A DNA stretch of 64,000 nucleotides, taken from a virus. Its lineage: Duplodnaviria > Caudoviricetes. Position numbers and translations under genes: made by a program. Within the stretch, counting starts at the first letter, position 1, and the number at the start of each line of letters is the position of its first letter. Shown one piece after another: positions 18,491 through 32,369 of the stretch. The DNA lies in the IMG/VR virus record IMGVR_UViG_3300027914_001343, positions 32,001 through 96,000 of that record; one strand, written 5' to 3'. The notes under the pieces were generated by a model, which saw only the letters and a list, made by a program, of their open reading frames with translations, searched no databases and was not told the origin of the DNA.

Positions 18491-19807
18491 TTAAAAAAAC
18501 TTTTCTCGCCAATTAAGACGCTTGACTTTCAAGTTCTTTGCGTGGGCTGCACTCATGAAGATGTAAAGGAAGGTACTGCCATATGCCGAAATAGCTGATG
18601 CCAAGGCAGTAGGATTGAGTGCCAAGCGTTCGCCAATACAGCAACGACAGTAATCGGTCTTATCAAGCTTACAAAACATTGGGGACCTAATCATTACTTT
18701 CTTACCAACATACTTCTTGAAAGTTTCTTCTGTGAGCTTTTCAGGGCCGCTAGAAGTAACCACGCTAAAACCTACGTACTTGTCTTTCAGTTCTTCTGTG
18801 AGATTGACCACATTGCCGAGCTTAGAGCCACAATCATCAGCAACAACGTTGATGTTGGACGCCACACGAAGTAACCACTTAACCGCTTCACCACCAAGAG
18901 CAGTCTGTGCGCCACGATTAAAAGAACCAGCACGAACAGAGTCCTGCATTTCAGGGAACTTATTAATATCCCATCCTTCGGACAGAGAGTTCTTGATAAG
19001 CGAAACATTTGGTTTGGAATCATCCAGCGGAGCCTCTGCACCATACATCAGGTACAGCTTACGGCGCACTGTGGTTCTGGACTTATCCGCAATCAAGAAG
19101 CCTTCAGAGATATCGCCCTTTAGGTACTCGGCATCATAAGCGATCAGCTTCGCATCAATCTGTGCAATTACTGCAGGATCGCCAAGACGATCCTTATTTT
19201 CTTCAAGGAGTTTCTTCTTGTACTCGGCAATACCTGGCGGAGGAAGAAGACTCTTAGGAGACGCAGCCGGGACACAGATCTGAGTGAAACCAGAAAGGTA
19301 GAACATCGAATCACAGAACTTCAGATATTCATCCACATAGATCGGGCCGCTTTCACGAGGTTTCCCTTCTTCTGGAATATCGGCTAGTCGTCTAGCAATC
19401 TGATCTTCAAGTGCGCCGACTTTAACACGTCCTTCAACGTAATCAATCTTGTCGCCAAGGGCATGAACAAGAACGATATAGTTAAAGAACAAATTACCGT
19501 AGGTGGTGTCGACATCTTTCTTAAGGTTAGGCACTTGACCTGCCTTGAGTTGGATACGGTCCTTAACAGCAAATGGAGGTGAGCCTGCTGGAGCATCCTC
19601 GATCTTTACCAGACTGTCGGCTTCATTAACACGATCAGGATCAACAAAGAAACTACCCATTTGGTTTTGTACAATCCGATATGGGTAAGGATCTGCTTTC
19701 CAGTCTTCAGGTCCTTCAGCAATATTACAGAACGCTGAGAATACCCATGCTCGACGGGTATAGCATTTATTCTGCATTGCCAGTAGGAAAAATTCAGCTC
19801 TTTTCAT
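18491..19807 (-). CDS. virion RNA polymerase beta' subunit fragment (phiKZ gp80-like)
   Basis: Bridge-helix-like GSFNRGAQTALGG, DDCGS, and RSPMFC..DYCRCCIG Zn motif homologous to the middle of RpoC. Confidence 0.85.
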   Translation of the reverse strand: MKRAEFFLLAMQNKCYTRRAWVFSAFCNIAEGPEDWKADPYPYRIVQNQMGSFFVDPDRVNEADSLVKIEDAPAGSPPFAVKDRIQLKAGQVPNLKKDVDTTYGNLFFNYIVLVHALGDKIDYVEGRVKVGALEDQIARRLADIPEEGKPRESGPIYVDEYLKFCDSMFYLSGFTQICVPAASPKSLLPPPGIAEYKKKLLEENKDRLGDPAVIAQIDAKLIAYDAEYLKGDISEGFLIADKSRTTVRRKLYLMYGAEAPLDDSKPNVSLIKNSLSEGWDINKFPEMQDSVRAGSFNRGAQTALGGEAVKWLLRVASNINVVADDCGSKLGNVVNLTEELKDKYVGFSVVTSSGPEKLTEETFKKYVGKKVMIRSPMFCKLDKTDYCRCCIGERLALNPTALASAISAYGSTFLYIFMSAAHAKNLKVKRLNWREKFF

Positions 19808-20663
19808 ACGTAGAGAACCTCACCAAGTATTCAGTAGCAGCCACGTCTACTTTAGTAATAATGGCTGGATCATCAAGCACCTCAACAAAGGTAGACTTAA
19901 CCATCTGGATCGCACGATCAGACTCAGCAGAGATCATGGCTAAAAACACCATGTTCAGGGCAATGGCTTTTACCTTATCTTCACGACCCATGTCGCTAGC
20001 TTCAATAGCGTCGAAGTCTTTCTTAGCTAAGTTCAGGTACACGCCATAAGGCAATCCAACAGGAATACCGCCCTTAATGAAGTTATAGGAAAAAATCTCA
20101 GAAACACCAATGCTTTCGATGAAACGAGATACTTTAGCGGCTCGTTCATTTACCTTGATTTGTTTTTGTGCTTCGTCTTGATCAATCACTTGCACCTCAA
20201 CAGAGATTTCTTTAATCTTCGTAATCAAGGCCCGAGAAACTGTCTCGATGAATTCCATGTAATCTTCCGGCATCTTTCCTGTCATCAATGCAACAATTTC
20301 AGCAAAAGCTTCTTCTGGATTACTAGATGACGCAATGAGGTCGTTGACTTCATCTTTGTTTTCATATTCAGGAATCAAGAGCAGTGCTCTTACGAAATCA
20401 GTCCTGATTGGTGTAGGTGTCTCCTGATCGATTCGGAGACCGTGCTCTGCCAGTACGTTTTCAAGAAGTTCTTGTGTAAGTCCATCGACCATCGCAACAA
20501 CACTGACCGGGTCTTTGTCCCCCGCTACCAAGAGAATTTCTTCGAACTCACGTTCAAAATCTTCGAGACCAATATCATCAAGAGCCTGATGCGCTTCTTC
20601 GATATTGAATAGTGCTTCTGGCGACATAGTGTTGCCAAGGTATTCCTTAAGAATATCAAGCAT
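19794..20663 (-). CDS. conserved hypothetical protein (phiKZ gp79-like)
   Basis: Start moved to ATG 20663 (AGGA SD). Overlaps the vRNAP start. Confidence 0.6.
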   Translation of the reverse strand: MLDILKEYLGNTMSPEALFNIEEAHQALDDIGLEDFEREFEEILLVAGDKDPVSVVAMVDGLTQELLENVLAEHGLRIDQETPTPIRTDFVRALLLIPEYENKDEVNDLIASSSNPEEAFAEIVALMTGKMPEDYMEFIETVSRALITKIKEISVEVQVIDQDEAQKQIKVNERAAKVSRFIESIGVSEIFSYNFIKGGIPVGLPYGVYLNLAKKDFDAIEASDMGREDKVKAIALNMVFLAMISAESDRAIQMVKSTFVEVLDDPAIITKVDVAATEYLVRFSTYEKS

Positions 20664-20790
20664 TATGATCTTCCTGTAAAAAATATGGCGTTTAACCGAT
20701 ATTATGTTAAGAGCCACACATTGTTTTGTCCACTTAGCTGGACGTTCAAATTATTTGCAATCCAGCTACTTTTATTCAAGAGGAAGTACC

Positions 20791-21321
20791 ATGACCAAGA
20801 AATCTTACAACCGTCAAATGCGCGATGAATTGAAAGCGCGCCAGGACGACGCCACGGCAGAACTGGCCAACAATACCAGCTGGGACGAACTCCGCAATAT
20901 TTACGGACAATGTTGCTCGCTCCTGAAAAACGCTGTCGATGCTTCGCAACTGATGAAACGTCAAGATATCTTCGACGCTTGCACACGTCTTGATGAAGCG
21001 CTCGGCCTGATCTCTGCTCTGAAAAACGATCTTCCTGCTATGCTGGAAGAAGCTAACGCTATCTGGGCGATCCACAGTGCCCGTAGCGGCAGGGCTGAAG
21101 TAGAAGACATTCTGCTGACGTTCGAAATCTACGAAAAGTACCAGCTATGGATCGAACGTTACAATGCCATCATTGTACCGACCATGGGGCATCTGTTGGA
21201 AATTACCAACGAAGCTGAAGTCGCGATCATTGCCAAGAATCAAGAAATCACAGCAGCGCCGGTTGAAATTGTCGAAGAACAGGCTGAAGTTGCGGCCGAA
21301 ACCAAGGAAGAAGAAGCATGA
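20791..21321 (+). CDS. conserved hypothetical protein (phiKZ gp78 position)
   Basis: ATG 20791 with GAGGA SD. ATGA overlap with the next gene. Confidence 0.65.
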   Translation: MTKKSYNRQMRDELKARQDDATAELANNTSWDELRNIYGQCCSLLKNAVDASQLMKRQDIFDACTRLDEALGLISALKNDLPAMLEEANAIWAIHSARSGRAEVEDILLTFEIYEKYQLWIERYNAIIVPTMGHLLEITNEAEVAIIAKNQEITAAPVEIVEEQAEVAAETKEEEA

Positions 21322-22766
21322 TCGAACAAGACACCGTACAGATGCCACAGGAGGAAACTCCTGTGGAAGCAGTTGCTGAACCGTCGCAACATATCCGGGA
21401 AGACAACCCCTGCTTTACATTGCCTGGCCCTGACTGGAAATCCATTCAGTACATCCTCCCGATTCCTTCCATGCGCCGGTCGGAAGCAAGCAAGCTCATT
21501 TCCACTATCGAAAACCACCCGAAGTTGCAACACGCTGATGGTTTCGACTGGGCACAAACGTTGTTCGATGGCGCATCCATGGGTCCGATGTACGACCGCT
21601 TCCAGAAAGCTATTGACGACACCTCGCGTTCGTGGCGTCAAAACGTTAACTCCGATGCCGGCAAGCTCGGGCCATCTGCACCACGCCATCAGATTCCTTC
21701 TGGCGAAAAGTTGACTGGGCAAAAAGCCATTCTTCGCATTCGCGAAGTTACCAACAGCGGTGGTCTGGTTCAGATCCCTGCTTGGCATTCTGGTTTCTGG
21801 ATTACTTTCCGTACGCCGTCTGAAGGTACGCTTATTGATCTTGAGCGTGCCATCAATGATGAGAAGATCACTCTCGGCCGCGTTACTGGTGGTGCCATTT
21901 TCTCCAACACCACTGTTTATCTGCTGAAGCATGTTCTGGATTGTGCGCTGGATCACGTTTACACAACGTCGATCGCTGGCGAGCATGATCTGCGTGAACT
22001 CATTTCGATCAATGACATTCCTTCGATCATCTGGGGTTTTGCGTGCAGCATCTACCGTCGTGGTTTCCAATATGCTCGTTCGGTTGTTGTGCCTGGCGAT
22101 GACAACATGGAAACAACCCACATTGTTCGCGAAGTCCTGAATCTGGGCAAGCTGCAATGGGTTGACACTTCGGCGCTGACTGAATGGCAGATCGCTCACA
22201 TGAGTCGTCGTGCTTCGCAGTCGATGAATATCGACAGCATCAAGCGCTACGTCGATGAATTCACTCGCGGCAAGCCACGCAAGATCGATCTGACTGATGA
22301 AGTCTCGATCAGTCTTCATGTTCCGAATGTCATGCAGCATTTGAACTCCGGCAGTAGTTGGGTCGACAGCATTGTACTGATGGTTGACAAGGCATTTGGT
22401 TATGGTCAGGATGATCAGAAACGCAATGAGTTCATTCTCGATCATGCTCGTGCATCCAACATGCGTCAGTATGCACACTGGGTGAAGGAAATCATCATCA
22501 ATGGCGATGAAATCGTTGACGATACTGAAAGTATCGAAATGTCGCTCAATGAACTGTCAAGTATCGACAAGGTTCGCGTTGCGTACTTTGAAGGTATTTC
22601 GAAGTACATTGAAGACACCACGATCTCTACGATTGCTGTTCCTTCGTTGTCGGCAGCGGAAGATAACAAGTTCCCACGGTTCCCGCATCTCTACCCGCTG
22701 GATACCCTGCAAACTTTTTTTACCCTTCTCGCGCAGAAGACCGCCCTGATTCGGAGTCGGGGTTAA
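21318..22766 (+). CDS. phiKZ gp77-like protein, probable tail/baseplate assembly chaperone (G form)
   Basis: 482 aa, ending ...LQTFFTLL over a T7 slippery run. Two '(I)x(F/L)(R/H)xP' elements as in phage tail chaperones (inference). Confidence 0.6.
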   Translation: MIEQDTVQMPQEETPVEAVAEPSQHIREDNPCFTLPGPDWKSIQYILPIPSMRRSEASKLISTIENHPKLQHADGFDWAQTLFDGASMGPMYDRFQKAIDDTSRSWRQNVNSDAGKLGPSAPRHQIPSGEKLTGQKAILRIREVTNSGGLVQIPAWHSGFWITFRTPSEGTLIDLERAINDEKITLGRVTGGAIFSNTTVYLLKHVLDCALDHVYTTSIAGEHDLRELISINDIPSIIWGFACSIYRRGFQYARSVVVPGDDNMETTHIVREVLNLGKLQWVDTSALTEWQIAHMSRRASQSMNIDSIKRYVDEFTRGKPRKIDLTDEVSISLHVPNVMQHLNSGSSWVDSIVLMVDKAFGYGQDDQKRNEFILDHARASNMRQYAHWVKEIIINGDEIVDDTESIEMSLNELSSIDKVRVAYFEGISKYIEDTTISTIAVPSLSAAEDNKFPRFPHLYPLDTLQTFFTLLAQKTALIRSRG

Positions 22767-23176
22767 CGCACGTCAACTGGCCTGAATTTGGGAAAGACTT
22801 GGACTATACTGACTTTCTATTCAAGATGTTTTCTGATGTGAAATTTCAGTTGATCCCTGCTGATGCTCAAATGCTGGCACTTGTTCGTTACGAAACTGAC
22901 TATGGGATCTTTAATCACGATGCTGATAACGATCCCCTTAGTCTTGCTCTGGTCAGGTTTCATTGGTCAGAGGACACAGTTTCGACGTCTCGTCTGCAAA
23001 GCCTGATGCAACGTTTTGCTGATTACGGTGTTGGTAGTAAATTCTGTATTTCTTGGTCTGACTTTCTGAAGATGCCTAGGCATGAATGCGAGCTGATGTT
23101 AGAGATTTCTTCTAAGCGCGCTGCAGAGGCAGAGAAGGCAGCTGAGAACGCACTTAACGCACTTCCTCCTACTTAA
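22721..23176 (+). CDS. ORF probably expressed as the -1 frameshift extension of the gp77-like protein (GT-like form)
   Basis: The frame is open from 22667 to 23176 and has only a weak TTG (22799) or ATG (22827) start. Contains 'SWSDFLKMPRHECELML', a tail-chaperone T-like motif. Confidence 0.55.
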   Translation, partial: YPSRAEDRPDSESGLTHVNWPEFGKDLDYTDFLFKMFSDVKFQLIPADAQMLALVRYETDYGIFNHDADNDPLSLALVRFHWSEDTVSTSRLQSLMQRFADYGVGSKFCISWSDFLKMPRHECELMLEISSKRAAEAEKAAENALNALPPT

Positions 23177-23185
23177 GGACTCTAT

Positions 23186-23653
23186 ATGGGCGAAGTAAAA
23201 CACATAGAGCAGGGCGATATCTTTAAATCAAGTATGCAGACTTTAGTTTGTCCTGTAAACATTGTTGGTACAATGGGTAATGGATTAGCTAAAGCTTTTG
23301 CTATGCAATTTGAGGGTTTGGAGAATGCTTATAAAAAAGCATGTGTAAACAAGGTCTTTGATACTGAGGGCTTTTTTGTATTCCAAACTAAGGATGGCAG
23401 TGGAAAAAAGATTCTTTGTTTTCCTACTAAAAAGCACTGGTCTAAGCCATCTAAACTAGAGTGGATAAGCGCTGGTTTGATGGAAGTATCAATAGGTTAC
23501 CACAAACATGGGATTACAAGTATTGCTTTTCCTGCTATTGGTTGTGGAAAAGGTCAACTCGACTGGAATGATGTTTATCCGCTTATAGTTGAACACCTTT
23601 TGTCTGTTGATTTACAAGTGGAAGTTTATTCGCCTGTTGAAAGATTCTGGTAA
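23186..23653 (+). CDS. macrodomain ADP-ribosyl glycohydrolase, DarG/TARG1-like
   Basis: GDIF..VCPVN.VG.MGNGLA, FPTKKHW, SIAFPAIGCGKGQLDW motifs. Confidence 0.9.
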   Translation: MGEVKHIEQGDIFKSSMQTLVCPVNIVGTMGNGLAKAFAMQFEGLENAYKKACVNKVFDTEGFFVFQTKDGSGKKILCFPTKKHWSKPSKLEWISAGLMEVSIGYHKHGITSIAFPAIGCGKGQLDWNDVYPLIVEHLLSVDLQVEVYSPVERFW

Positions 23654-25365: not shown

Positions 25366-26904
25366 CTATACCTTGATACCCATGTGCTCGATATGGTACT
25401 CGAGCGTTCTGTCTTTCAGCATTTCGCGTTTCTTCTCGTGATATTCCATATGCTTCTTGATATCGACGCATGCAAAATACACGAACTCAGGAACACGCCC
25501 ATCTTTCATTTCACGTAGCCGACCGAGGCCCTGAATATTAGCTTGACTACTCGAAACTGCAGTCGTCATTACTGTAGTCGCTAGGTTTGGAATATCCACA
25601 GCGGTTCCAGCAGATTGCAGAGTACTGACTCTGATATCCGGCTTCATCAGGTTATCGTACGGATCATCCTCAACATATCTCTTCACATCCAACTCACGGT
25701 AACATTCTGCCAAGAAAGCAGTGACCTTTGTGCACATTGCGATTGAAGCGCAGAACACAATAAGCCTATCACCAGGTTGGTAGTTTTTGATGTACGTATT
25801 TTGAATGACATTCTGAATAAGTTTCAGGTACTTTTCCATACACTGTGGCTTACTCATAATGCTACGTTCAAAGGCATGGTGCGAGTAGGTCTTTGACCCA
25901 AAGTCTTGCGTTCTAATCAGATCAGGACGCGAGAGCCCCCACAGCACAGCCCTAGCACGGATATACTTCTTGTAGGTCGGCGCTTTGTATCGCAATCCTA
26001 ATGGGTAAGCAATCTCGTACATTTTACTAATAAACGGATCGTCACTCACCAACGTAGCGGACAATGAAACTGAGTCCTTCACATGGGTATAAAGATCGAT
26101 CTTGAAGTTCAGATGGAAATCCTGGTGTACCTCATCAATCACACGGAACCCTGCTTTCAGATGAGAGAAGAGTTGGTGTGGCAAACAATCGTACCCAAGT
26201 TCTATCGTTCCTTCTTTAAATTCTTCATACAACTTCAGCCAATTCTGCACCGTCTTATTGCTTAGCAGAATCATCTTGGCTTTTAACTTATTAGTAGAAG
26301 CCAGCCTGAGTAACGCCTTTAGCTGGTTTGAGCCCTGAACTACCAGAACGTCATTCTTCTTTAACTTATAAGTCTTCATGAGGTCAATCAGCCATTTCTC
26401 CAAATACATTGGACGAACGATATAAACCGCCATTGCGTTCATATCGGCAGCTGCCTGCATCGTACAGTAACTCTTCCCCTGACCTGTCTGCAGCGATACT
26501 AACTTACTTACAGGACGTTCAGGTTCTTTAATATACTCGATTACAGACGGCTGATGGCTTCGCGGCGCCCAACCATCCTGAATCTTCAGATCAACCGCTT
26601 TAAATACAGGCGGACCAGCATACTCAAGAGTGTACTCGTTTTGTTTGATCATCGATAGTTCAAGATGGGTTTTGAATTCGGGCAGCTGATTGATGTGGAA
26701 TCTGAATACAGTTCTGTCCTTTGTAGCAGCCGCGAAAACTCTGAGGGGAGCTCTAAAGAACCGCCTCCCCTCTCGTTTGATACCCCATAACACCAACTTC
26801 TTTGAAAATTGATCAATGACATGTCTGCCATACAGACCAATCTCAGTGATACAAAAGTGGTGACTATAGACGGTAATCTTAAAACGCTTCTCTTCTGAGG
26901 ACAT
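25366..26904 (-). CDS. superfamily 2 (DExH) helicase (phiKZ gp75-like)
   Basis: LQTGQGKS, IDEVH, SAT and QGLGRLR motifs. Confidence 0.9.
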   Translation of the reverse strand: MSSEEKRFKITVYSHHFCITEIGLYGRHVIDQFSKKLVLWGIKREGRRFFRAPLRVFAAATKDRTVFRFHINQLPEFKTHLELSMIKQNEYTLEYAGPPVFKAVDLKIQDGWAPRSHQPSVIEYIKEPERPVSKLVSLQTGQGKSYCTMQAAADMNAMAVYIVRPMYLEKWLIDLMKTYKLKKNDVLVVQGSNQLKALLRLASTNKLKAKMILLSNKTVQNWLKLYEEFKEGTIELGYDCLPHQLFSHLKAGFRVIDEVHQDFHLNFKIDLYTHVKDSVSLSATLVSDDPFISKMYEIAYPLGLRYKAPTYKKYIRARAVLWGLSRPDLIRTQDFGSKTYSHHAFERSIMSKPQCMEKYLKLIQNVIQNTYIKNYQPGDRLIVFCASIAMCTKVTAFLAECYRELDVKRYVEDDPYDNLMKPDIRVSTLQSAGTAVDIPNLATTVMTTAVSSSQANIQGLGRLREMKDGRVPEFVYFACVDIKKHMEYHEKKREMLKDRTLEYHIEHMGIKV

Positions 26905-26926
26905 TACAGCTCCAAGCGATTTTCTG

Positions 26927-28921
26927 CTAGAGATTACCGTATGCACTTACTTCAGCAGGCATCAGCATCATGTCCATTGGGTGGTCAGGACGATTCGTCA
27001 GAACAAAGCTCTTAGGATTCGTCACGATACTGAAGTGGTCCTCATAGGCCATTGCTGCACTCAAACTACGATGCAGCATGGATTGCTCCATTACGCCAAG
27101 ACCACCAGATGTCCATGGTTTCGGTGTGAAGTAGTTTCCATCTTCGTACGAAACAATCATGGCACCCAACATCACGACCGATACGACAGCCAAGTTTGCA
27201 CTAAGCTTATCGTTGATCAAGTCAAACAGGTCGACCAACATAGCTTCAGGAGACATTGAGTAACGCTCCTTCATTTCCTTAACGCTCGACTCAAGCATCT
27301 TGGCGATCTCGTTAGAGTGGTCAGCCATGTTGAAATGCTTCATCGGTAACGTCAGGAAGTTTTGATCCATGTCGAAACCAGTCATCGTGATGATGTAATT
27401 ACCTTGTGCATCCAGCTCCCAGCCGAATTTCTTGATGTGATTGAGAACAGCATGCGTCAAACTAGCATGACGACGACCGAGCGAGACCGGGAAGAAGTTG
27501 ATTTCTTCAACATCGCCACGTTTTGTGATAATGCCAATTTCTGTCATTTCACTTACGCGACTAATATTGAGTTCGGCAACATGGTCCACTTCGTAAATAT
27601 CAGTCATGTTTGCAGCAGCTGACGCCGGAACGACAAGTTTCACCTGATAGTGTTTCATTGACTCAGACAGCACATAACTCGAGCCGTCGGCAGATACTCT
27701 CATGTAGTTGCGCTGGAGGTCGTCCAGTACAATCCAATCGACTGCAGCAGAACCATCAAGGTGCTTAACAGACAACACCGACTGCGATGATTTCTGCGCC
27801 AATGAAGTACAGCACATTTGACCGAGGTTAGTGTTTGCCGGGATCGACAAAGACAGTTCACCAAAGCAAGTGCTGCATACACCATTCGGATCAGGATGCG
27901 CACAGTGAATAACCGTGCGCAATTTGACTGTTGTCCCAATAAGATGTTTGTCATTTATGGTAATTGCCTTGAGACTACCATCTTCAGTAATGTAATTCAT
28001 ACCGACAAGATGTTGCAAATCACCAGGGAAAACCACCTCATTGTTTTCAACCACTCGTGGCCGGATATGCCAGAGCATGTATTTCGTAGTACCGCAATCG
28101 CAGTGATGAAGGTTCTTCACCACCTGTGACATCAGCTGCAAGCGCCGGGAGAAATATTCAGCTGCTTGCAACGGAGCCTTAGAGAATAACAAGGCCTTAG
28201 TGGCTGACCGAGATTCGATCAACGAATCGTGCAACAACCGAATACCTTCGGCATAGCAACGCAACACCGGGGTTCTGAAAAGATTCGAATCACCATCAGT
28301 AATGAAACCGCGATGCCCGACACACTGAAGTGCTTGGTTATCATTTACCAACTTAGAGCGCAAGGCAAGCGCCAGCGTATTGTTATCAAAATCCTTCCAT
28401 TTCATCAGTGCGTTCTTAATAAACGCATTTGATTCCTCGATAGAGCGGCCGGTCGGTTCAGTCAAGGCACGACGTGCTTTGATCTCAGGATGTCGGAGAA
28501 CATGCGAGAAGTTCTTGATATCGAGAGACTGTACGTGATCTTCAGCACGAAGACTGAGCTGAACATAGATCTCGTTGGTAATCTCGTAGATCCGTCTGCT
28601 CATGTAATCGCGGATAGCGACACCATCCTGATTACCCTGATATGCGTCGTGCGAAGACCACATGCACGCTTCCAACAACCTGAGATGACTTGATGGTCCG
28701 GGACGTTTACCGTCCAGAATAGACCTGATGTGATGCGCCTTCAGCATCGGTGTTTCTGGGAACTCGCGATGGAACGCCCACGCATAACTGGAGTAGATAG
28801 TCTCACGCCAGGTACAATGGATTTCACCATCGTCAAACATCAAGATATGGTCTTCACAAAGAAGTTCCCAGAGCTCGTCAGGTGTAAACTGTAACAAATC
28901 CCGAGCTTTCATCTTAAGCAT
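26927..28921 (-). CDS. non-virion RNA polymerase beta' C-terminal subunit (phiKZ gp74-like)
   Basis: YFSRRLQL bridge helix, DCGT, LRTVIHC..GVCSTCFG Zn site, SQSVLSVKH trigger-loop-like motif. Confidence 0.85.
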   Translation of the reverse strand: MLKMKARDLLQFTPDELWELLCEDHILMFDDGEIHCTWRETIYSSYAWAFHREFPETPMLKAHHIRSILDGKRPGPSSHLRLLEACMWSSHDAYQGNQDGVAIRDYMSRRIYEITNEIYVQLSLRAEDHVQSLDIKNFSHVLRHPEIKARRALTEPTGRSIEESNAFIKNALMKWKDFDNNTLALALRSKLVNDNQALQCVGHRGFITDGDSNLFRTPVLRCYAEGIRLLHDSLIESRSATKALLFSKAPLQAAEYFSRRLQLMSQVVKNLHHCDCGTTKYMLWHIRPRVVENNEVVFPGDLQHLVGMNYITEDGSLKAITINDKHLIGTTVKLRTVIHCAHPDPNGVCSTCFGELSLSIPANTNLGQMCCTSLAQKSSQSVLSVKHLDGSAAVDWIVLDDLQRNYMRVSADGSSYVLSESMKHYQVKLVVPASAAANMTDIYEVDHVAELNISRVSEMTEIGIITKRGDVEEINFFPVSLGRRHASLTHAVLNHIKKFGWELDAQGNYIITMTGFDMDQNFLTLPMKHFNMADHSNEIAKMLESSVKEMKERYSMSPEAMLVDLFDLINDKLSANLAVVSVVMLGAMIVSYEDGNYFTPKPWTSGGLGVMEQSMLHRSLSAAMAYEDHFSIVTNPKSFVLTNRPDHPMDMMLMPAEVSAYGNL

Positions 28922-31622: not shown

Positions 31623-32369
31623 GTGCGACAATTTATGTTTAAAAATCCTGGTCATGTGAAACGCCGAGAGTCGTTGCCGGTCGGACAAGGTCTTTTTGAT
31701 CTTTATGCCAGTAATGGCAAGTTTGTTTTTTTAGCTGGTTCGGAAGCGATTTCTCCAGTGGTTACTTATTCCGGTTCTAGCGTTTTTACCAACAACATTA
31801 GTGGGATTCCGTCCAATTTTTTTGGTAAGGACCCTGACGGCAGGTCCTATCTTGATCTTCCCAGTTCCAGATTTTTACGTATTGATTTACGGTCGCTACC
31901 AATTCCGTCTTATGGGAATGTAAGTATCGTAATTGAGTATGCACCTAAGATTGGTTCTGCCGGTGGTTACTTGATGTTGCACGGTAGCGGAAATCCATCA
32001 AATATTAGTACTAATGGCATTTTACAATTACACTTAACATTTAATGGTGCCCAAACGACTGGTTATATAGGCGATTATGGCAAGGTCAACGCAATAACTG
32101 CTTCGACTACAATTAATCCCGGACAAAGGCATTGTATTACTATGTCCAGAGGGGCCGATAGTTACAGGTATTTTTCTATATCTAAAGACAAGGTTTCTTG
32201 GTCCCGCTTTGGTGGTAGTCCGGTTAGCCCATCTGCTACTATACTATCTAGTGGCGGGTTTCTGTTTATTGGTAGCCTCTCGGCGGGTGCCGCCGGTAAG
32301 CTTTATTCTATCCGGATTTTTGGTGGCGACCTTGGTGGCGACACAACCACATTGAACATGTTTAGGTAA
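31623..32369 (+). CDS. LamG/concanavalin-A-like beta-sandwich protein
   Basis: GTG 31623 after AGGGGG (or ATG 31635). C-terminal 'RHCITMSR...LFIG...GKLYSIRIF..DL' resembles LamG_3. Confidence 0.5.
   Translation: MRQFMFKNPGHVKRRESLPVGQGLFDLYASNGKFVFLAGSEAISPVVTYSGSSVFTNNISGIPSNFFGKDPDGRSYLDLPSSRFLRIDLRSLPIPSYGNVSIVIEYAPKIGSAGGYLMLHGSGNPSNISTNGILQLHLTFNGAQTTGYIGDYGKVNAITASTTINPGQRHCITMSRGADSYRYFSISKDKVSWSRFGGSPVSPSATILSSGGFLFIGSLSAGAAGKLYSIRIFGGDLGGDTTTLNMFR

Follow-up and report, generated by a model that had tools for sequence, protein, structure and literature searches.

A probable programmed -1 ribosomal frameshift near the 3' end of the phiKZ gp77/cg18 core gene of nucleus-forming jumbo phages

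We analysed a 64,000-nucleotide (nt) stretch of viral DNA (hereafter, the window; positions 32,001 to 96,000 of IMG/VR virus record IMGVR_UViG_3300027914_001343) and focused on an open reading frame (ORF) at 21318-22766 on the plus strand, referred to here as ORF A. Its 482-aa product belongs to the family of phiKZ gp77, PhiPA3 gp074, Goslar gp081 and core gene cg18. Comparison with relatives makes it probable that this gene gives rise, through a programmed -1 ribosomal frameshift close to its 3' end, to two proteins, the 482-aa protein A and a 619-aa extended form, A-B, in which B is encoded by the downstream -1 frame. Selection for a slip-prone run, and on both reading frames around it, was demonstrated family-wide at the level of sequence comparison. 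A ribosomal rather than a transcriptional origin of the slip, and a need for both products at a fixed ratio, are our inferences.

The candidate slip site, T TTT TTT at 22715-22721 on the plus strand, lies in phase with ORF A at Phe467-Phe468. The zero-frame codons are ACT (22713), TTT (22716), TTT (22719) and ACC (22722), so that the heptamer fits the X XXY YYZ pattern in phase. No stop interrupts the -1 frame between 22667 and 23176, and a downstream ORF that opens with TTG (22799-23176) lies in this frame. Counted from the slip site, the -1 frame extension (22721-23176, plus strand) comprises 151 codons plus the stop, and A-B would consist of A residues 1-468 followed by 151 residues (619 aa). 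The junction reads ...LQTFF-YPSRAEDRPDSESGLTHVNWPEFGKDLDYTDF..., and the predicted junction peptide of the window's version of A-B is FPHLYPLDTLQTFFYPSR. An earlier interpretation of the same DNA, made without database searches (hereafter, the sequence-only reading), had described this arrangement; the codon phase of the heptamer, the open -1 frame shared with the TTG ORF, and the fusion at this junction with 619 versus 482 aa were all confirmed here.

Between 22721 and 22766 on the plus strand, the two frames overlap in a putative dual-coding segment, in which the zero frame reads TLLAQK and onwards to the stop while the -1 frame reads YPSRAEDRP and continues. Just after the stop of A, the -1 frame encodes the linker motif HVNWPEFG (22769-22792, plus strand), which corresponds to HVxxxxFG in the family. 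The first possible start for a stand-alone ORF B is the TTG at 22799-22801 on the plus strand, downstream of this conserved motif, and it is probably not the main entry into the -1 frame.

In the mechanism we propose, most ribosomes would read ACT TTT TTT ACC straight through and stop 14 codons later, producing the 482-aa protein A. A fraction of ribosomes would slip back by one base on the U-run, either with two tRNA-Phe slipping together on U UUU UUU or with the P-site tRNA-Phe alone re-pairing on U UUY. The slipped ribosomes would translate YPSRAEDRP...HVNWPEFG in the -1 frame and then a helical domain of 100 residues, yielding the 619-aa A-B. In A-B, the last 14 residues of the terminal helix of A would thus be swapped for a flexible linker plus domain B.

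The comparison across relatives drew on named phages (19 annotated loci) and on IMG/VR (68 loci retrieved with a profile of A), which gave 86 distinct loci once duplicates were removed. One of the two patterns used to search IMG/VR spanned the FF motif, as degenerate TTY TTY, and therefore introduced no bias towards TTT. The 86 loci were 24-45% identical to A. They covered the clades of phiKZ, PhiPA3, 201phi2-1, Goslar, PCH45, SPN3US-like phages, Agricanvirus, Wellingtonvirus and Eowyn, together with Vibrio phage pVa-21, phages of Ralstonia, Burkholderia and Xanthomonas, Bacillus phage AgentSmith and the 68 IMG/VR contigs.

A downstream ORF in the -1 frame was found in all 86 distinct loci, and in every one of them the -1 frame was open without a stop back to the T-run, even though spacer lengths vary. 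Past the site, the -1 frame stayed open for 150-192 codons across all loci, compared with 10-37 codons for the zero frame and 1-86 codons for the +1 frame. All 86 loci carried a run of five to eight T at the equivalent Phe codons (T7 in 52, T8 in 14, T6 in 13 and T5 in 7). The sequence-only reading had named TTTTTTT or TTTTTTC at the FF codons of homologs, together with an open -1 frame, as the pattern by which it could be checked, and the 86 loci bore this out. Homologs without the slippery heptamer, stops in the overlap, or a strong start belonging to B itself would have been contrary evidence in its view; a T-run and an uninterrupted -1 frame were present in all 86 loci, and in most of them no start codon precedes the conserved beginning of the downstream domain.

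Every locus, including those with T5, retained a zero-frame TTY codon preceded by T. This also held for the seeming exceptions, namely GTT TTT TCC (L031), GTT TTT AYC (L034 and L038), CTT TTT ATT (L062 and L064) and CTT TTT TTC (L066) and, among the named phages, G TTT TTT in FLC9 and PhiPA3 and G TTT TTC in Noxifer. The canonical tandem-slip heptamer was present in most loci, namely those with T7-T8 in phase, and all loci permit re-pairing of P-site tRNA-Phe from UUY to UUU, even where the site reads G TTT TTT or T TTT A. Codon choice at the site was strongly skewed: TTT made up 140 of the 154 Phe codons there (91%), whereas Phe elsewhere in the A genes was encoded by TTT 418 times and by TTC 815 times (34% TTT), and by TTT at only 19% in the 44 loci with a GC fraction of at least 0.55.

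Synonymous codon choice just past the run also followed the -1 frame. Where Thr occupies the first position after the run, ACC was used in 41 of 49 loci (84%) versus a background of 36%, and its third base opens the -1 frame Pro codon. Leu at the third position was encoded by CTC in 56 of 64 loci (88%) versus a background of 16%, and here the third base opens the -1 frame Arg codon. The codon of Leu at the second position, which stands opposite a variable -1 frame residue, was free. Zero-frame synonymous sites are thus fixed where the -1 frame needs Y-P-x-R, which is the pattern expected under selection on the -1 residues.

The -1 frame product itself could be aligned over 40 diverse loci, with the shared elements YPxR, HVxxxxFG, YExxxGIxxH, PLxLV, ED, ER and FLxLP, followed by a long terminal helix. 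Within HVxxxxFG, the Phe of FG was at least 90% conserved in this alignment. In 51 of the 57 loci that bear the motif, the window included, no -1 frame ATG, GTG or TTG was present between the run and HVxxxxFG. Upstream of the run, the open -1 frame contained no start codon in 76 of 83 loci. The first -1 frame start after the run was located at a median of codon 35, and at codon 86 in phiKZ.

The zero-frame tail past the run was conserved as well. In the window it reads TLLAQKTALIRSRG, which fits the family consensus TLLxQKxxxIxxR, and Q473 and R481 were nearly invariant. Since this tail is conserved, the short form A is also likely to be a real product. No in-frame A-B fusion was found among 120 homologs of near length, all of which end at the C-terminus of A. 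Nor was one present in the 150 cluster representatives listed (of 1670), in which the match extends to the protein's own C-terminus. A metagenomic homolog of 735 aa (P0022) was considered as a natural A-B fusion and rejected, as its extension is N-terminal only. This homolog carries about 260 extra N-terminal residues, which may represent a fusion with the gp78-like gene or another added domain.

Two annotated genomes deserve mention at this site. In phiKZ (L004, NC_004629.1 2982-3224), the re-annotated 80-aa PHIKZ076.4 starts at the first -1 frame ATG, at codon 86 after the slip, and therefore spans only the last half of the conserved B domain. In Xanthomonas phage RTH11 (L005, OQ790161.1, 2825-2831), the run is T7, versus T8 in the sister phage LucasX. 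Both the conserved A tail and B are out of the zero frame in RTH11, and the annotated 627-aa ORF continues in a non-conserved frame. The homopolymer was probably miscalled in RTH11, unless the slip run of this phage genuinely differs in length.

RNA elements that could stimulate slippage were also considered. The sequence-only reading had proposed hairpins downstream of the site, and the sequences are indeed present: a small hairpin, CTTCT-CGCGC-AGAAG, lies at 22725-22739 on the plus strand, 3 nt after the T-run, and a second, CCCTGAT/GTCGGGG, at about 22744-22762. The region showed no unusual folding, with a z-score of 0.18 versus shuffles, and the hairpin at 22725-22739 is not supported as a stimulator. 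Stems of 4-6 bp recur 3 nt after the run (CUGC-UCGU-GCAG; CUUCU-CGCGC-AGAAG in the window), but in differing registers, and are a consequence of the Leu-Leu...Gln-Lys codons.

Several results weigh against the proposed frameshift. The minimum free energy of 22722-22810, the 89 nt after the run, did not depart from that of the shuffles (the z-score given above). Across 70 loci, the downstream region had a mean z of -0.43 and no common strong structure, and no Shine-Dalgarno (SD)-like stimulator was seen upstream on inspection. As neither a conserved strong structure nor an SD-like element was found, the efficiency of the slip may be modest or low. In about 10 loci TTT TTT is preceded by G, and in 7 the run is only T5; sites of this kind fall outside the canonical tandem-slip heptamers. 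A few loci (RP12 and 201phi2-1) carry a start codon where A stops, which could allow B to be made on its own there as well. The loci are phylogenetically related, so that the counts given above are not independent trials.

The same A-B protein would also be produced if a phage or host RNA polymerase stuttered on the template A-run and added one U to some of the mRNAs. The protein product would be identical, so all of the comparative results fit this explanation equally well; moreover, a homopolymer of 7-8 T occurs in 66 of the 86 loci, and no typical ribosomal-frameshift RNA stimulator was found. However, the run comprises only 5-6 T in 20 of the 86 loci, which is short for polymerase stutter and makes transcriptional slippage less likely as the main mechanism. 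Known bacterial transcriptional slippage uses runs of about nine or more. The T TTY phase was kept in every locus, which stuttering would not need, although the phase is partly forced by the conserved Phe. Because TTY preceded by T is kept even at T5, tRNA re-pairing fits better than polymerase stutter, and we consider transcriptional slippage unlikely.

Two further explanations are less probable. If A and B were two ordinary genes, B would be translated from its own start near the stop of A (TTG 22799) or by termination-reinitiation, and the T-run would be a by-product of Phe-Phe. All annotated genome records examined do give two separate coding sequences, the start codon overlaps the stop of A in RP12 and 201phi2-1, and the PHROGs hold B as separate families. 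Yet HVxxxxFG, and in phiKZ half of the B domain, lies upstream of the first possible start; all 86 loci show the -1 relation, and the frame passes from the run into B uninterrupted by a stop despite variable spacers; and both the excess of TTT at the site (91% versus 34% elsewhere) and the tracking of the -1 frame by synonymous sites in the overlap are contrary to a by-product, which makes this arrangement highly improbable. An assembly or sequencing error in the homopolymer, with the true gene being one 619-aa ORF (T8) or the window carrying a pseudogene, is more improbable still. Such runs are error-prone, and the T7 of RTH11 against the T8 of LucasX breaks both conserved frames, but the same split layout was present in 86 independent records or contigs from many laboratories and platforms, the zero-frame tail past the run is conserved as protein, and the 150 listed cluster representatives include no in-frame fusion. 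Taken together, the comparative results exclude chance, sequencing error and simple independent translation of B as the main explanation.

Protein A was modelled as a large alpha/beta protein with a predicted local distance difference test score (pLDDT) of 85.5 and a predicted template modelling (pTM) score of 0.87. The last helix of the model, residues 463-481, contains the slip site, and the long form would therefore lose the last 14 residues of this helix. B was modelled as a helical domain with a pLDDT of 84, preceded by a low-confidence HVxxxxFG linker. Foldseek and VIA-align searches against the PDB returned no convincing match (best Z of 5.7 for A, on helical segments, and 4.8 for B), and PDB sequence-profile searches with A and B gave only chance-level matches. 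Prediction of a complex between A(20-468) and B scored 0.37 versus 0.00 for the best control, which is weak support, as passes at or below 0.60 are more often wrong than right unless the pair is likely beforehand. Of 80 solved complexes, 58 cleared the pass mark of this method, as did 2 of 110 mismatched pairs; only 7 of the 80 solved complexes passed at or below 0.60, but both passing mismatches did so. The runs for A and B shared at least 23% of contacts, with a partner pLDDT of at least 50.

The sequence-only reading had further identified A and B as a tail-chaperone pair of the lambda G/GT type and had seen a likeness to T-domains in the downstream ORF. The first of these proposals was not supported, as size, synteny and family matches all failed. 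A has 482 aa and a large alpha/beta fold; gpG-type chaperones usually have 100-150 aa. Its gene is located among those for virion RNA polymerase (RNAP) beta, non-virion RNAP (nvRNAP) beta, a helicase and a macro-domain protein, not near tube or tape-measure genes. Neither part matches a tail-chaperone or T-domain Pfam family. No chaperone appeared among the fold-search or PDB-profile matches for A and B, although absence from these lists is not proof against the family.

A different lead to tail assembly came from the BFVD. After its own family, the Foldseek matches of A in this database included at least 15 models of baseplate hub subunits or hub assembly proteins of the T4 gp26/gp51 type (E-values of 1e-4 to 6e-2; target-normalised TM of 0.42-0.54), with predicted models on both sides of the comparison. 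A also matched, at a TM of 0.49, an ESM Atlas cluster whose members carry PF12322 in 14% of cases. T4 gp26 and gp51 (L088, NC_000866.4 3803-5229) both match PF12322 over their full length, with E-values of 9e-64 and 4e-52, and are therefore paralogues. The homolog in Bacillus phage AgentSmith is annotated as 'baseplate hub assembly protein'.

At the sequence level, PF12322 did not match the window's A (P0001), and no relative scanned reached the cut-off of 24.5 bits; it was nevertheless the most recurrent sub-threshold Pfam match, occurring in 2 of 32 relatives at an E-value of 0.002 and in 2 of 35 at 0.035. A scan of the window's 149-kb record with PF12322 gave no match but was uninformative, as the controls were silent too. 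With hhalign, an alignment of the window's protein and its nearest relatives (A1) showed no significant match to single T4 gp26 or gp51 or to a gp51/gp26 alignment, and an alignment of most clades (A4) aligned with the gp51/gp26 alignment only over a 13-column CPxC stretch. Most clades share this CPxC knuckle and a KLLxxD...QIxH stretch with gp26/gp51 according to hhalign. In most clades, a mid-protein CxxxxxxC pair accompanies the CPxC knuckle, which lies about 35 residues before the Phe-Phe site, and these Cys motifs likely form a zinc site. All four Cys are lost in the proteins of A1.

On these matches, we regard a distant relationship of A to the T4 hub-assembly family as a lead whose chances are roughly even. 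A role in tail assembly is possible through this likeness to gp26/gp51, for which the sequence signal is sub-threshold. A more ambitious proposal is that A and A-B act as a family-wide ratio-setting device in an essential step of baseplate-hub assembly, with A an expanded gp26/gp51-type factor and domain B recruiting a second partner. The pair would then be an independent functional analogue of G/GT that all annotations have missed, and we offer this proposal tentatively, as it is rather doubtful at present. Two observations count against a late morphogenetic role. Churi gp256, the homolog of phiKZ gp077, is listed as early-expressed (PMC11849849), which also sets it apart from lambda-type chaperones and from gp26/gp51, and the record of 201phi2-1 carries no virion mass-spectrometry flag for gp136, while gp138 is flagged.

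Among known systems, gene 10 of T7 (10A/10B) likewise undergoes a -1 slip close to its 3' end, at U-rich Phe codons, so that a minor form with a C-terminal extension accompanies the major short form; no elaborate pseudoknot is needed. Gene 10, however, encodes the major capsid protein, and its extension of about 50 residues has no fold of its own, whereas the extension here is a conserved domain of 150-190 residues on a non-capsid core gene. The tail-assembly-chaperone frameshift is reportedly conserved in long-tailed phages. As in lambda G/GT, a -1 slip late in the first ORF would give short and long forms with a common N-terminal part, and very divergent phages keep this layout with no in-frame fusions, which is a shared logic and not evidence of homology. 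The lambda pair differs in lying between the tube and tape-measure genes and in the size of G (about 140 aa), compared with the 482 aa of A and its RNA-polymerase/helicase neighbourhood.

T4 gp26/gp51 offers a parallel in that the annotation of gene 26 includes a second, nested product, 26'. Protein A has twice the length, however, and the second product of T4 arises by internal initiation and not by frameshifting. The tau/gamma pair of Escherichia coli dnaX resembles the system proposed here in its tandem-slip heptamer and in the set ratio of two products from one gene. In dnaX, by contrast, the shift truncates the protein, and it is driven by two elements, an SD-like sequence upstream and a hairpin downstream, neither of which was found for A.

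The ORF A family corresponds to PHROG 4585 (E-value of 5e-99) and the B family to PHROG 12109 (2e-30). Both PHROGs are without an assigned function, and no Pfam family was found for A or B at E-values up to 0.1. Searches with tblastn found A in 209 phage records, all of phiKZ-like jumbo phages. Their hosts were Pseudomonas, Erwinia, Salmonella, Serratia, Ralstonia, Vibrio, Klebsiella, Burkholderia, Escherichia and Xanthomonas, and Bacillus phage AgentSmith was matched in addition; named homologs included PHIKZ077 of phiKZ, 074 of PhiPA3 and gp136 of 201phi2-1. Core gene cg18, which corresponds to Goslar gp081, phiKZ gp077 and RAY gp267, is listed as a 'hypothetical protein' (Prichard et al. 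supplement, PMC10299810). Full-length homology and the synteny of gp79-like, gp78-like and gp77-like genes place A in the phiKZ gp77/cg18 core-gene family of Chimalliviridae. The source genome is a 149-kb IMG/VR fragment with an estimated completeness of 56%. The nearest relatives of the window's A are only about 45% identical to it, and megablast of the locus against phage records returned no near relative.

The gene order in the window is that of the phiKZ, PhiPA3 and 201phi2-1 records. On the minus strand lie the genes for virion-RNAP beta (18491-19807) and the gp79-like protein (19794-20717) on one side of A, and those for the helicase (25366-26946) and nvRNAP beta (26927-28921) on the other. 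The gp78-like gene (20704-21321, plus strand) is located directly upstream of A. The ATG of A overlaps the TGA of this gene in an ATGA arrangement (21315-21321), which suggests translational coupling of the gp78-like and gp77-like genes. Directly after B, as in Goslar (gp083), follows a macro-domain gene (23186-23653; PF01661, E-value of 2e-13), whose product may bind or remove ADP-ribose.

In literature searches on frameshifting in phiKZ gp77, Chimalliviridae, jumbo phages or SPN3US, we found no description of this event, in agreement with the sequence-only reading, which had considered it undescribed for the family. Occurrences of 'gp77' in other papers refer to the numbering of other phages and were set aside. 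None of the annotated records examined joins A and B. While the proposed mechanism is of a known kind, its instance in a core gene conserved across a whole giant-phage family appears to be undescribed in the searchable literature.

Much research has been devoted to the phiKZ-like nucleus-forming phages, which also find use in phage therapy, yet one of their approximately 70 core genes appears to be mis-annotated in all records examined. The true coding unit would yield two proteins, one short and one long, and what is annotated downstream as a small 'hypothetical protein' (in phiKZ, the 80-aa remnant PHIKZ076.4) would be mostly the tail of the long form. This would affect how knock-outs, essentiality calls from transposon sequencing (Tn-seq), proteomics databases and structure predictions are read at this locus, and it would add one more recoding event conserved over an entire viral family. 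The likeness to T4 gp26/gp51 provides a concrete functional hypothesis, and the function of cg18 may now be approached by mutating the slip site or by forcing the fusion.

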